UHGV virus genome: UHGV-0409449
DNA: 16,424 bases
Strand: one strand, 5' to 3'
From: a virus
Shown here one piece after another: positions 12,082 to 16,424 of the stretch (position 1 is the stretch's first letter; the number at the start of each line of letters is the position of its first letter). The notes under the pieces are model-generated. The model was given only the letters and a program-made list of their open reading frames with translations. It had not been told where the DNA came from and did no database searches. A program made the position numbers and the translations under genes.

Positions 12082-12511
12082 CTGACACATCCTGTGCGAG
12101 ATTTATTACGTAACTTCTGCGGATTTTCTGAGTAACAGGGAAAATCCGATACAACGGGTTAATGAACGAGTCGCCATGCGTAACCATGACGTTGAAATGC
12201 CACAGTCGCTCTCCTTTACCCATATATTCAGTGGGTATGTACAACCATTCACTGTTTTCGCCCTGTTCAGCCGACGTCAGACAACGTTGTTCGCCTTCAA
12301 TCACTGTCGTTGGCTTCTGAACATCGCGGATCCAATATCTGACCGTTGCGCCGCGCAAAAACGGGAATTTAGACCGGTATTTGAACGGCACCCGGATGAA
12401 GCCCTGTTTAATTTCCACATCACCAAGTTCTAAATGCGTGATGTCCTTGCGTTTTAGCAAATAGCGATCGGCTAAGGCTAACGCAAGAACGCATACACCC
12501 CAGCCAATCAT
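12068..12511 (-). CDS. lydB: Antiholin-like protein (P1 LydB-like)
   Basis: 147 aa. ATG at 12511-12509 overlaps the lydA stop (ATGA), with GGAGG 8 nt upstream. N-terminal hydrophobic segment, then a soluble domain. Assigned by position after the holin-like gene and by recalled P1 order. Confidence 0.55.
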   Translation of the reverse strand: MIGWGVCVLALALADRYLLKRKDITHLELGDVEIKQGFIRVPFKYRSKFPFLRGATVRYWIRDVQKPTTVIEGEQRCLTSAEQGENSEWLYIPTEYMGKGERLWHFNVMVTHGDSFINPLYRIFPVTQKIRRSYVINLAQDVSDDEK

Positions 12512-12837
12512 TTCCCACCTCCCTTTTTCACCAAACTTGTAAGAACATTCAGAATGCTATCGATATTCACTCGTTTCATCCCTGAAATCACCTCATGACC
12601 GTTATTGCTGGCTATCGTTACCATTAAGTACGTAATTGATAACTCCCAGCCTTCGTGTTGCCCCAATAGGTACGCCACCGCGCCAGCTGTCACTGCAACA
12701 AAGATCTCCGTAACCAATCCCAACAAATTGCCAGACTGGCGACCATCTCGGACATCCATCAGGAACGTGCCTATCCCACCAATTACTGAAAGCAGGAGCG
12801 CAATAGCAACTGGAGCTAATTCCTGTGTGTCAAGCAC
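12508..12837 (-). CDS. lydA: Holin-like membrane protein (P1 LydA-like)
   Basis: 109 aa with GTG start at 12837-12835 and a strong SD (AGGAGGG) 5 nt upstream. Two to three hydrophobic helices (APVAIALLLSVIGGIGTFLM; LLGLVTEIFVAVTAGAVAYLL; LSITYLMVTIA) and a charged C-terminus KKGGGK. First gene of the overlapping lydA-lydB-hdf-darA chain. Confidence 0.6.
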   Translation of the reverse strand: MLDTQELAPVAIALLLSVIGGIGTFLMDVRDGRQSGNLLGLVTEIFVAVTAGAVAYLLGQHEGWELSITYLMVTIASNNGHEVISGMKRVNIDSILNVLTSLVKKGGGK

Positions 12838-12904
12838 AAGTTCCCTCCTACGTTGTCAGGAGGTAATGGTATGCAAAGTAACTTCTCAACCGGTCATTTG
12901 TTGC

Positions 12905-13186
12905 TTAAGAGGCATTTCTATTGAGGTACGAATCGATAAGCCTTTGTAACCTTTCAAGAATGAGCCTGTTATTGATGCTGCAAATAAGAGTCACGCAATT
13001 CTGAAGACTTTCATCCATACCCTTATATTCCGCGAAACACATGCCTATAAAGCCTGCAAGTACGGCAGCAAGACACTCGGCCAGCAATTGCCTGCATGAT
13101 GCTTCGTAACGTTTTTCACGAACCCCATTCAGAAACGAATGCACTCCGCCAAAGATGGATATGAAAATGATTTTTAGATCAAACAT
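12905..13186 (-). CDS. Small two-TM membrane protein upstream of lydA (possibly P1 LydC-like)
   Basis: 93 aa from the ATG at 13186 with AAGGAA 6 nt upstream; the ORF-track start at 13255 has no RBS. Hydrophobic segments LKIIFISIFGGVHSFL and LLAECLAAVLAGFIGMCFA. Sequence family not recognised. Confidence 0.4.
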   Translation of the reverse strand: MFDLKIIFISIFGGVHSFLNGVREKRYEASCRQLLAECLAAVLAGFIGMCFAEYKGMDESLQNCVTLICSINNRLILERLQRLIDSYLNRNAS

Positions 13187-13312
13187 AACTATTTCCTTAA
13201 TGGTTAAATAAACATCATTGGGAAACGGTATGTACTTTGTGATTTCCACACACACTGGTTTTGTTAATTAAAATCCGCAGCTTGCTATAAATAACGATAG
13301 TGAGCAGAAAAT

Positions 13313-13873
13313 ATGCTAATAGGCTATGTACGTGTATCAACAAATGAACAAAACACTGCTTTACAACGAAACGCTCTTGAAAGCGCAGGATGTGAGCTAA
13401 TTTTTGAGGACAAGGCGAGCGGCAAAAAGGCTGAGCGCCCTGGGTTAAAAAAGGTACTCCGTATGCTTTCCAGAGGTGATACCCTGGTCGTATGGAAGTT
13501 AGACCGTCTTGGGCGCAGCATGCGTCACTTAGTTGTGCTGGTGGAAGAGCTGCGTGACAGAGGCATTAACTTCCGGAGTCTCACTGACTCCATCGACACC
13601 AGTACACCAATGGGGCGCTTTTTCTTTCACGTAATGGGTGCGCTGGCAGAAATGGAACGTGAGCTTATCGTTGAACGTACACGCGCTGGACTTGATGCAG
13701 CTCGCGCAGAAGGTCGTATAGGTGGGCGTCGGCCTAAATACCAAGAAGAAACATGGCAGCAAATGCGGCGATTGCTGGAGAAGGGTATCCCCCGTAAGCA
13801 GGTTGCAATCATCTATGATGTGGCTGTTTCCACGCTTTATAAGAAGTTTCCGGCGTCATCATTTCAATCCTAA
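13313..13873 (+). CDS. cin: Serine recombinase, site-specific DNA invertase of the Cin/Gin/Pin/Hin family
   Basis: 186 aa. N-terminus MLIGYVRVSTNEQNTALQRNALE carries the catalytic Ser, and the sequence runs through the diagnostic core (GDTLVVWKLDRLGRSMRHL...FRSLTDSIDTSTPMGRFFFHVMGALAEMERELIVERT...GRIGGRRPK) to a C-terminal HTH (IPRKQVAIIYDVAVSTLYKK). Essentially the Cin sequence as I recall it. Confidence 0.92.
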   Translation: MLIGYVRVSTNEQNTALQRNALESAGCELIFEDKASGKKAERPGLKKVLRMLSRGDTLVVWKLDRLGRSMRHLVVLVEELRDRGINFRSLTDSIDTSTPMGRFFFHVMGALAEMERELIVERTRAGLDAARAEGRIGGRRPKYQEETWQQMRRLLEKGIPRKQVAIIYDVAVSTLYKKFPASSFQS

Positions 13874-13890
13874 ACCTTGGTTTAAGAGAA
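13865..13890. other. cix-type crossover site for the invertase (26 bp, imperfect dyad)
   Basis: CAATCCTAAACC-TT-GGTTTAAGAGAA: two 12-bp half-sites matching at 8 of 12 positions when the right half is reverse-complemented (TTCTCTTAAACC), around a 2-bp core at 13877-13878. This is the Hin/Gin/Cin crossover-site architecture with the AAACC..GGTTT core. The cin stop codon (13871-13873) lies inside the left half-site. It is the only such site in the window. Confidence 0.75.
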
Positions 13891-15420
13891 CTCGGTACCA
13901 GCGGTGAAAAGATCCCCCTGTTGAGCACGGCTAACACATGGAGTGCACGCCAGACTTTCAACGGCGGGATCACCGGGGCGCTGACAGGGAATGCCGACAC
14001 CGCGACGAAATTGAAAACAGCGCGGAAGATTAACAACGTTTCATTTGACGGTTCGGCAGATATTTCTTTAACAGCCTCGGATGTCGAAGCATTGTCACTG
14101 GAGGATGCCAGGAAGATTATTCAACCGCTGCCAGATGTGTGGATACCGTTTAATGATTCACTGGATATGATTGCGGGCTTTTCTCCATCATATAAAAAGA
14201 TTGTTATTGGCGACGACGAAATAACAATGCCTGGCGACAAGGTTGTTAAGTTTAAACGCGCATCGAAAGCAACCTATATAAATAAATCTGGTGTGCTGAC
14301 AGAGGCTGCCATTGACGAGCCACGATTTGAACGTGATGGCCTGCTTATTGAGGGACAACGAACAAACTACATGCTCAATTCGGAAAACCCTGCCAGTTGG
14401 GGGCGATCGTCAAATATGGATGTTCCCGAAACCGGGACGGATAGTTTTGGTTTTACCTATGGAAAGTTTGTCTGTAACGATTCTCTGATTGGGCAAACAT
14501 CAGCCATTAATATGGCATCAATTGCTGCTACAAAGTCAGTTGATGTTTCAGGCGATAACAAGTACGTGACAACCTCATGTCGTTTTAAAACAGAACGACA
14601 GGTAAGGTTGCGTATCCGCTTTGATAAATATGACGGTAGTGCAACAACTTTTCTTGGTGATGCATATATTGATACACAAACGCTTGAAATTAATATGACA
14701 GGTGGCGCGGCATCAAGGATTACAGCGAGAGTCAGAAAGGACGAAGCTACTGGATGGATTTTTGCAGAGGCAACAATCCAGGCAATTGATGATGAGTTAA
14801 AAATAGGATCTCAGATACAGTATTCTCCTAAGCAGGGCGGAGCAACCGTATCTGGAGACTATATTTATCTGTCTACCCCTCAAGTTGAGGATGGTTCTTG
14901 TGCATCATCTTTTATTATCTCAGGAACGACGGCGGCTACCCGCGCAAGCGATATAGTTACAGTTCCAATTAATAATAATCTTTATAATCTTCCTTTTACG
15001 GTTCTTTGTGAGGTACATAAGAACTGGTATAAAACGCCAAATGCAGCGCCACGTGTTTTTGATACCAGCGGTCATCAAACCGGAGCGGCTATTATTCTTG
15101 GGTTCGGATCTTCGGCAGATGGGCCAGACGGATTTCCTTATTGCGATATTGGAGGAGCTAACAGACGGGTAAACGAAAACGCATCGCTTGAAAAAATGGT
15201 TATGGGGATGCGTGTAAAATCAGATCAGTCTACGTGCTCAGTAAGTAACGGGCGCATATCCAGCGAAAAAAAGACTACGTGGTCCTATATTCAGAACTCT
15301 GCAACCATCCGTATTGGAGGCCAGACTACAGCAGGGTTACGTCATTTATTTGGTCATATCAGGAATTTCAGAATATGGCATAAAGCATTAACAGACCAAC
15401 AAATGGCTGAGGTTATTTAA
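13879..15420 (+). CDS. Tail-fibre variable C-terminal cassette (Sv-prime-like) with no initiation signals of its own; LamG-like tip domain
   Basis: Frame is open from 13843 across the cix site with no ATG and no RBS; the listed start at 13921 is a TTG. Carries the conserved tail-fibre hinge motif GNADTATKLKTARKINNVSFDGSADISL. C-terminus LFGHIRNFRIWHKALTDQQMAEVI resembles the terminal strand motif of Laminin_G_3 / concanavalin-like jellyroll domains. Expression would require inversion-mediated fusion to a constant 5' part located outside the window. Confidence 0.7.
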   Translation, partial: GLRELGTSGEKIPLLSTANTWSARQTFNGGITGALTGNADTATKLKTARKINNVSFDGSADISLTASDVEALSLEDARKIIQPLPDVWIPFNDSLDMIAGFSPSYKKIVIGDDEITMPGDKVVKFKRASKATYINKSGVLTEAAIDEPRFERDGLLIEGQRTNYMLNSENPASWGRSSNMDVPETGTDSFGFTYGKFVCNDSLIGQTSAINMASIAATKSVDVSGDNKYVTTSCRFKTERQVRLRIRFDKYDGSATTFLGDAYIDTQTLEINMTGGAASRITARVRKDEATGWIFAEATIQAIDDELKIGSQIQYSPKQGGATVSGDYIYLSTPQVEDGSCASSFIISGTTAATRASDIVTVPINNNLYNLPFTVLCEVHKNWYKTPNAAPRVFDTSGHQTGAAIILGFGSSADGPDGFPYCDIGGANRRVNENASLEKMVMGMRVKSDQSTCSVSNGRISSEKKTTWSYIQNSATIRIGGQTTAGLRHLFGHIRNFRIWHKALTDQQMAEVI

Positions 15421-15698
15421 TGAAAGATATTACGTTGAAATTCAGAGACAGGGAAGAATACGACTCTTTTTTAGAGAGTATATCCTGGCACGATAATGAA
15501 GAACTGCAAAACAACATCCTTCTTGATGTTGTAGGTATTACATATACCGAAATACCAAACGGCGAGAACGAAGAACCAACAGTGATTAAAAATGATGGCT
15601 TCTTCGTTAATGTTCGTATTTTAAACAACAGTTTGAAACAACAAATGTTTGATGGTTTTGAAGTTCAATTAGAACAACCGCTGCGGGAATGGGCGTAA
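15420..15698 (+). CDS. Small protein translationally coupled to the tail-fibre cassette (possible fibre chaperone/assembly factor)
   Basis: ATG overlaps the upstream stop (TAATG) with GAGG 7 nt upstream. 92 aa, acidic. Does not resemble Tfa/U-type assembly proteins that I know. Confidence 0.4.
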   Translation: MKDITLKFRDREEYDSFLESISWHDNEELQNNILLDVVGITYTEIPNGENEEPTVIKNDGFFVNVRILNNSLKQQMFDGFEVQLEQPLREWA

Positions 15699-15707
15699 GG
15701 AATTAAT

Positions 15708-16424
15708 ATGGCAACAGTGACAACGATACCAGCAGATATAACTAATCTGAAAAAAGAAATCGACTCTATTAAGAGTGATGTTGCTAAAAAACTGGAAAGT
15801 TCAGGCGGCACAATAACTGGTGATCTAACAGTTGTTGGTGGCATTTCTGGTGAGCTGTCCGGCAATGCCTCAACGGCTACAAAGCTGAAAACCGCGAGAA
15901 AGATTAATTCCGTTTCGTTTGATGGTTCAAAAGACATTAACCTCACGCCTCAAGATATTGATGCATTGCCAATAACCGGAGGAACTCTTACCGGCGGTTT
16001 AACGGTTGATGGTGAGATTGTCTCCAAGTCAGGAAATGGCTTCCGCATCGTACAGGGTGACTATGGATTCTTTATCCGAAACGATGGTTCAAGCACATAC
16101 TTCATGTTGACCAATTCGGGCGACAGCCTGGGAACATGGAATAGTTTAAGGCCGCTTACCATTAACAACGCCAATGGTGCTGTTTCAATCGGTAATGGTT
16201 TAACTGTTAATGGTTCTGTTGGTCTGGGTACTGCAAATGCTCTTGGTGGTAACTCTATCGTCCTTGGCGATAATGATACTGGTTTTAAACAGAATGGTGA
16301 TGGCATTCTTGATGTTTACGCTAATGGTCAGCGAGTATTCCGCTTTCAGAATGATGCGGCTTTTTCTTTAAAAAAATTGCTGGCCGGAGATAGTAAAACT
16401 TTTTCACTATCAAGTTCTAACACA
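15708..16424 (+). CDS. Tail-fibre-like protein with its own start, 3'-partial (runs off window)
   Basis: ATG at 15708 with AAGGAA 5 nt upstream. Open frame of 239 codons to the window edge, not in the ORF track because no stop lies in-window. Has the same hinge motif (GNASTATKLKTARKINSVSFDGSKDINL) about 50 aa from the N-terminus, followed by Gly/Asn/Thr-rich beta-rich fibre-like sequence. Confidence 0.7.
   Translation, partial: MATVTTIPADITNLKKEIDSIKSDVAKKLESSGGTITGDLTVVGGISGELSGNASTATKLKTARKINSVSFDGSKDINLTPQDIDALPITGGTLTGGLTVDGEIVSKSGNGFRIVQGDYGFFIRNDGSSTYFMLTNSGDSLGTWNSLRPLTINNANGAVSIGNGLTVNGSVGLGTANALGGNSIVLGDNDTGFKQNGDGILDVYANGQRVFRFQNDAAFSLKKLLAGDSKTFSLSSSNT

Follow-up and report, generated by a model that had tools for sequence, protein, structure and literature searches.

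A P1-type tail-fibre switch with a four-gene arm that probably encodes a jointed, two-protein fibre

The DNA analysed here, a stretch of 16,424 nucleotides that we call the window, belongs to a P1-like (IncY) phage-plasmid and includes the cin-proximal, currently silent arm of a C-segment switch of the P1 type. Compared with P1, one arm of this switch has grown from two genes to four: a fibre cassette without a start codon (Sv') is followed by a small gene (orf92), by an independently initiated tail-fibre gene (fibre2), and by a Tfa gene. We consider it probable that the switch holds a two-part fibre, with fibre2 as the separately made outer half, docked on the protein that results when the constant fibre sequence Sc is joined to Sv'.

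A plasmid search returned about 700 records that match the window, of which 125 cover at least 80% of it. P1 itself is 98.5% identical at the nucleotide level to window positions 13200-14021 (822 bases, cin included), a stretch that takes in the region in the 5' part of cin annotated in P1 as the recombinational enhancer. A full cix match occurs just once in the window: CAATCCTAAACCTTGGTTTAAGAGAA at 13865-13890 overlaps the end of cin, stands at the same place as the cixL annotated in the P1 record, and forms the left edge of the invertible segment. The cassette frame is open from 13876 to a TAA codon at 15418-15420; phrog_1419 matches it through to its C-terminal end (E 6e-236), the matches to NCBIfam GTA_spike_fiber (E 1e-14) and PDB 6tb9 (E 4e-6) describe a domain like that of GTA head-spike fibres, and a weak LamG/galectin-like match stands at the end of the cassette. 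The ATG of orf92 at 15420 overlaps the cassette stop as TAATG, suggesting that the two genes are translationally coupled, and orf92 ends in turn at a TAA (15696-15698). The features are collected in Table 1. A P1-like plasmid with the window's orientation, NZ_AP045735.1, has an IS2 inserted in the cin / fibre-cassette region.

Table 1. Coordinates of features in the window (position 1 is its first nucleotide)
Feature	Position	Strand	Basis
cin, serine DNA invertase, 186 aa	13313..13873	+	98.5% nt identity to P1 cin; recombinase annotation in relatives
cix, cin-side crossover site, CAATCCTAAACC TT GGTTTAAGAGAA	13865..13890	.	exact 26-bp match, 0 expected by chance
Sv' cassette, silent, start-less, 514 codons plus stop	13876..15420	+	open frame; in-frame Sc fusions in L002 and L006
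orf92, 92 codons, small conserved protein	15420..15698	+	phrog_1361 over its full length, E 2e-35
AAGGAA, Shine-Dalgarno-like	15697..15702	+	read from sequence; overlaps orf92 stop; 5 nt to fibre2 ATG
fibre2, independently initiated tail-fibre gene, 239 of about 365 codons in the window	15708..16424	+	ATG; homology
Proposed docking peptide, fibre2 N-terminal motif MATVTTIPADITNLKK	15708..15755	+	conserved in other elements
fibre2 hinge motif region, residues 29-89, including TATKLKTARKINSVSFDGSKDINLT	15792..15974	+	shared with cassette 13918-14100
fibre2 T4 gp34-type C-terminal trimerisation domain, residues 56-152	15873..16163	+	Pfam PF21446 Gp34_trimer, E 3e-29; PDB 4uxe/5nxf, E about 1e-30

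The window stops inside fibre2, and the right-hand side of the arrangement was read from relatives that are 98.7-99.5% identical to it over positions 13200-16424 or the segment part of them, none of the records found being a perfect match. Two of these have the window's orientation, Salmonella pCFSAN058545_02 (L001) and E. coli p2022H047-2 (L005); in both, cin, cix, the start-less cassette, orf92, fibre2 and Tfa follow one another on one strand, and the opposite strand carries Tfa', S (with the second cix inside it), R and the baseplate genes. In E. coli U2501 (L002, L004) and in the AREA_494 plasmid (L006) the same segment has its flanks exchanged, such that the Sv' cassette of the window is fused in frame to Sc and followed by orf92, fibre2 and Tfa, and the other Sv adjoins cin. 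The 6.1-kb segments of L005 and L006 share 99.5% identity and have their flanks exchanged, and L001 and L002 are an isomer pair of the same kind; both isomers thus occur among database records.

Each element has exactly two cix sites, which bound the 6.1-kb segment in inverted orientation in the relatives, and the partner of the cin-side site (18733-18758 in L001, 15777-15802 in L005) is present in all relatives examined. Inversion between two sites predicts that the outer half-sites are swapped between the isomers, and the observed swap fits it: the inner half-sites stay the same, and those on the outside (CAATCCTAAACC at cin, TTATCCAATACC in Sc) change places. In the relatives the S reading frames, of 967-1137 aa, cross the junction in frame in both isomers, and both have the same protein junction, ...VIQY/LGLRELGTSGEK... 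The two arms, Sv'-orf92-fibre2-Tfa and Sv-Tfa', converge on a GC-rich stem-loop between their Tfa genes; Sc, R and, upstream of R, the P1 late promoter LPs (18 of its 19 positions are conserved in the relatives) lie outside the segment.

Judged by the close relatives, this is a standard two-site, two-arm switch of the P1 type with fibre2 inside the segment. It shares with the C-segment and Cin of P1 (and with the Mu G/Gin and e14 P/Pin systems) an invertase 98.5% identical to that of P1, an identical cin-side cix with the second site at the Sc/Sv junction, a constant Sc that, like R and the late promoter, is not part of the segment, two arms that run towards each other and have a Tfa/U-type gene last, and the occurrence of both isomers in nature. 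It differs from P1 in the length of the segment, which is 6.1 kb here as against 4.26 kb (4,256 bp); in the content of one arm, which has four genes (Sv', orf92, fibre2, Tfa) where each P1 arm has two; in the distal part of Sv', which is a GTA-spike/LamG-type domain of siphovirus lateral fibres and not a Mu S-like tip; and in the Mu S-like tip, which is present on a separate polypeptide. The initial annotation had proposed that the invertible region might contain a complete short-fibre gene as cargo, and the location has held up, with fibre2 between the cix sites in every close relative that extends rightwards; fibre2 is more than cargo, being part of a conserved module (see below). The same annotation had named a standard inverted two-cassette arrangement with fibre2 outside the invertible region as the outcome that would speak against it; the relatives do have the standard two-arm inverted arrangement, but fibre2 lies inside the segment.

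The other proposal in that annotation was a multi-cassette architecture. Min of p15B, a P1-related plasmid, rearranges the ends of tail-fibre genes by means of an invertase; it has six crossover sites and several cassettes. If the window had a switch of this kind, fibre2 would be a third alternative cassette that could be joined to Sc through extra crossover sites, and there are features that invite such a reading, including the hinge motif common to fibre2 and the cassette, the nested inverted repeats within the segment, and an internal 1.6-kb inversion that exchanges the tips of fibre2 and Sv between L005 and L001. We scanned for crossover sites both strictly (cix with at most 3 mismatches) and with a loose core pattern (at most 2 mismatches), and neither scan revealed any in an element beyond the two boundary sites; the loose pattern has one 2-mismatch match inside orf92 (15619-15638), which is at the chance level, with 0.74 expected per window. 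The statement in the initial annotation that no crossover site separates the cassette, orf92 and fibre2 is borne out. The comparison with Min fails because each element has only two crossover sites, and with them two converging arms. In addition, fibre2 has a ribosome-binding site and an ATG of its own and begins with a 28-residue leader unlike Sc, the edges of the internal swap have just an inverted repeat and nothing resembling cix, and the invertase is Cin. We therefore regard a Min-like multiple inversion as extremely improbable, and return to the two-arm switch of the P1 type. The match within orf92, TTTTAAACAACAGTTTGAAA, is cix-core-like with two symmetric mismatches, and it is found in L002 too and not in L001.

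The internal inversion is an observation in its own right. L005 positions 12389-14010 and L001 positions 15210-16828 (2709-4330 and 2538-4156 in segment coordinates, respectively) are inverted relative to each other, with 94% identity over 1.6 kb, in otherwise collinear relatives. The inverted piece comprises the part of fibre2 for its C-terminal tip, the tip sequence of the other Sv, and the pair of Tfa genes, indicating that the arms have exchanged pairs of tip and chaperone. Its edges are at a 72-nt inverted repeat of 71% identity that encodes ...SNYSNFDSRYALK..., and a second internal inverted repeat, between fibre2 and Sv, extends over 261 nt at 86%. We rejected Cin as the agent of this inner swap, since no cix-like sequence is present at the inversion edges. 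One could imagine a nested generator with two levels, in which Cin flips the 6.1-kb block and recombination at the internal repeats flips the inner piece with the tips and Tfa genes, such that tips would be exchanged between the directly fused and the docked fibre; we think this quite unlikely, although if it were to occur at appreciable frequency within a lineage, four fibre configurations would be available from two sites in one element.

How the fibre2 gene is constituted can be seen partly in the window and partly in its relatives. As the initial annotation had described, it is a second fibre gene with its own start, co-oriented with the small ORF and with the cassette that has no start codon: its ATG at 15708 is preceded by AAGGAA (15697-15702), and the frame stays open for 239 codons up to the window end at 16424. 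Over this shared part it is 99% identical to the 365-aa gene of L005 and L006, and close relatives that reach rightwards have fibre2 genes of 326-365 aa, each with its own start. The hinge motif is indeed shared, and it lies about 50 residues from the N-terminus, where it had been noted: cassette residues 15-75 and fibre2 residues 29-89 are 61% identical over 61 aa (E 5e-18). In addition to the gp34-type trimerisation domain (Table 1), the fragment in the window matches many tail-fibre PHROGs. In a full-length relative, the alignment to the T4 gp34 C-terminal trimer domain covers residues 91-176 and that to residues 265-504 of Mu S (PDB 5yvq, E 2e-37) covers residues 97-365, and a Caudo_TAP Tfa gene (E 7e-21 to 7e-29 in the relatives) lies 3' of fibre2, past the window end. 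This is the order of Mu S and its chaperone U, with the difference that in Mu and P1 the tip is the C-terminal end of a long S protein, whereas here it is detached, with its own start and a docking leader. Comparison of fibre2 with the copy in a P2-like plasmid gives a pN/pS of 0.36 over 170 codons, from small counts. On the strength of its ribosome-binding site and ATG, this ratio, the Caudo_TAP gene behind it and its two domains, the gp34-type trimer and the Mu S-like tip, we take fibre2 to be functional; the Pfam and PHROG matches mark it as a genuine tail-fibre gene.

Cin flips the whole block, and fibre2 and the cassette in front of it are switched as one unit. A search for a sigma-70-type promoter belonging to fibre2 gave no more sites than chance, with 6 sigma-70-like sites as against 6.4 expected from shuffles. 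In the orientation of the window the arm is without a late promoter, and cin reads into it. We found no terminator-like site close behind cin, and low-level read-through expression of orf92 and fibre2 in this orientation is thus possible.

The neighbour of fibre2, orf92, does not encode an assembly protein: it belongs to phrog_1361 and has no Caudo_TAP match, and the real Tfa gene is 3' of fibre2. In the large protein collection, the closest orf92 relative is 98% identical to that of the window. Homologues of orf92 occur in 182 phage records, each adjoining a lateral tail-fibre gene, and in at least 8 phage groups the position is directly 3' of lateral fibre genes that end in a GTA-spike/LamG-type domain. 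An AF2 model of orf92 (pLDDT 80.7) has an alpha/beta fold, for which a fold search returned no informative structural neighbour.

We inspected representatives of these lineages more closely, including IrisVonRoten (T5-like), KarlJaspers and tunus (Drexlerviridae), JenP2 (Nonagvirus), KarlBarth (Dhillonvirus), HannyBb, and Lambda_ev203 (Jouyvirus). In each, the first fibre protein ends in a homologue of cassette residues ~80-514 (42-90% identity) and orf92 homologues are 40-64% identical to that of the window. In all of them except Lambda_ev203 the gene after orf92 begins with M[AV]TxTxIPxDIxxLK, and 10-13 of the 16 residues of this motif are identical to the window's MATVTTIPADITNLKK. Across 8 other elements 10-16 of the 16 motif residues are identical, and in six of the eight the remainder of the protein is largely or wholly unrelated to fibre2: in four of them nothing matches significantly, and in HannyBb and JenP2 the similarity is confined to a short stretch of ~30% identity. 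At least five of these six proteins with unrelated remainders have a similar heptad-rich C-terminus, which may be of the intramolecular-chaperone type.

A scan of IMG/VR with a degenerate DNA pattern for the motif yielded at least 120 loci, a set that is redundant, drawn mostly from E. coli prophages and selected by the motif itself, whereas the nine lineage representatives were chosen through orf92 and not through the motif. Among the matches listed, the motif is at the start of an open reading frame in 120 of 120, and at all 119 testable loci an orf92 homologue ends 12-15 nt upstream on the same strand and is preceded by a homologue of the cassette distal domain. Taken together, these comparisons point to fibre2 being part of a conserved module, consisting of the cassette distal domain, orf92 and fibre2, which is here closed by a Tfa gene. 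The co-occurrence of orf92 and fibre2 may partly reflect genetic linkage, as the genes are neighbours. The absence of a second fibre in Lambda_ev203, which has the fibre-1 domain and orf92, indicates that orf92 goes with the platform, that the platform can work alone, and that the distal fibre is optional.

Several further observations concern the surroundings of the module in other phages. In HannyBb a serine recombinase annotated as a DNA invertase (L003, 7182-7772) is encoded at most a few kb from the fibre module, and at about 14 of the IMG/VR loci among the matches listed, in prophages of lambdoid type, there is a serine recombinase ~36% identical to Cin a few kb from the module. HannyBb (L003, 6655-6954) and Lambda_ev203 (L009, 4292-4585) also have, 3' of the module, near-identical proteins of 97-99 aa that are hydrophobic, begin MDI[ST]P[FL]LHALCAVAAQ... 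and look like small membrane proteins.

The four-gene arm is rare among P1-like plasmids, being present in about 6 of 600-700. Together orf92 and fibre2 are found at 80% coverage or more in 12 of 72,556 plasmid records, namely six P1-like plasmids of 90-99 kb and six 48-kb P2-like plasmids. The P2-like plasmids, from E. coli, have the same four genes (93-97% identical) behind the baseplate genes V, W, J and I, and no invertase gene is annotated beside the module in the 16-kb stretch examined. In one of them, the 48.9-kb plasmid pMB9880_3 (L011), the fibre gene has TTATCCAGTACCTTGGTTTAAGAGAA at 6993-7018. This is almost exactly the hybrid cix of an Sc/Sv' junction, and the coding sequence upstream of it resembles Sc; to judge by this sequence, the site looks like a fossil P1-type junction fixed in the expressed orientation. 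A P1-like element in the chromosome of E. coli ST2747 (L012; NZ_CP007392.1, 2134949-2151007) has Sc fused to the window's cassette; its copy of fibre2 is cut short, it has no cin, and the place of the second arm is taken by a serine acetyltransferase gene.

The rarity of the arm, together with the truncated fibre2 of this chromosomal remnant and the second-fibre-less arrangement of Lambda_ev203, could be taken to mean that fibre2 is a hitch-hiker, a leftover fibre from a donor phage for which a P1-like virion has no use. The fibre2 frame is nonetheless intact in all six P1-like and all six P2-like plasmids that carry the arm, its changes show an excess of synonymous ones, the genes have the features of translational coupling, and the only Tfa gene of the arm follows fibre2 and matches its tip of Mu S type. 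Moreover, the distal domain of the cassette, the platform that accompanies fibre2 everywhere, is exactly the part that becomes fused to Sc. For these reasons we consider it unlikely that fibre2 is carried as unused cargo, and favour a working part of a two-part fibre.

A working fibre2 might also be attached elsewhere, as an independent short fibre placed directly on the P1 baseplate in the manner of T4 gp12 and not on the S' fibre. Its own start, its shortness (365 aa) and an N-terminal region unlike Sc would all suit such an arrangement, but the same N-terminal motif is found in siphoviruses and myoviruses with unrelated baseplates, and its constant companions are orf92 and the fibre-1 distal domain only, which argues that the attachment site of fibre2 lies within the module. 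Direct attachment to the baseplate thus seems quite improbable, and we prefer docking of the fibre2 N-terminus on Sc-Sv'.

In this jointed fibre, Sc-Sv' would after inversion be the proximal part, ending in a domain of a glycan-binding (GTA-spike/galectin-like) type, and fibre2 would be the distal part, its trimers docking onto the distal end of Sc-Sv' through an N-terminus of about 16 residues, M[AV]TxTxIPxDIxxLK. The orf92 product would possibly be a connector or an assembly factor between the two, the downstream Tfa would fold the Mu S-like tip of fibre2, and this tip would be the receptor-binding part; in Sv', the GTA-spike-fibre/LamG-type domain could be an additional glycan-binding site. 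A flip of the segment would then toggle the virion between a fibre of one polypeptide (Sc-Sv) and a jointed one (Sc-Sv' plus fibre2).

Some lateral fibres of T5-like phages and small siphoviruses are known to consist of two or more proteins (PMC8594841). In IrisVonRoten (Bas32) the distal fibre Gp24 has been modelled by structure prediction on the proximal Gp22, with a galectin-like domain protruding at the joint (PMC11990801). The Gp22-Gp23-Gp24 set resembles the arm described here in the C-terminal domain of the proximal fibre (65% identity over 437 aa), in the small ORF (54%), and in the N-terminal motif of the fibre gene that comes next. It differs in that its distal fibre is T-shaped with dual RBDs and an intramolecular chaperone, whereas fibre2 has a gp34 trimer domain and a Mu S-like tip for which a separate Tfa is required, and in that the module is constitutive there and inversion-switched here, grafted onto the fibre shaft (Sc) of a myovirus. 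The branched, L-shaped fibres of the T5-like phage DT57C, formed by LtfA and LtfB, and also phiEco32 gp14/gp15, are alike in principle, with a second fibre that has its own start and whose extreme N-terminus anchors it to the first fibre and not to the tail, as shown genetically for DT57C (PMC4728585, PMC10713586). We rejected homology in this case, for the N-terminus of LtfB (MSRPLMPKSG...) is unrelated and lacks the motif, and there is no orf92 between ltfA and ltfB; DT57C is an analogue only.

In the literature on the diversity of C-segments in P1-like elements we did not find the four-gene arm, only general statements of variability. Neither the switch, a classical one, nor lateral fibres built of several proteins are new. 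A module of this kind that stands under Cin control and is grafted onto Sc extends both modestly, and no new recombination mechanism is revealed. The N-terminal motif together with orf92 is a candidate for a portable docking interface, common to at least 7 phage lineages, which could serve in engineering for exchangeable receptor-binding proteins on P1-based delivery particles. For the P1-like phages the arrangement means that a complete module for a two-protein fibre can be taken over from siphovirus lateral fibres into a switch of the classical P1 type, and if the jointed fibre is formed as proposed, a single flip would change the architecture of the fibre, from one polypeptide to a jointed structure or back, in addition to its tip.
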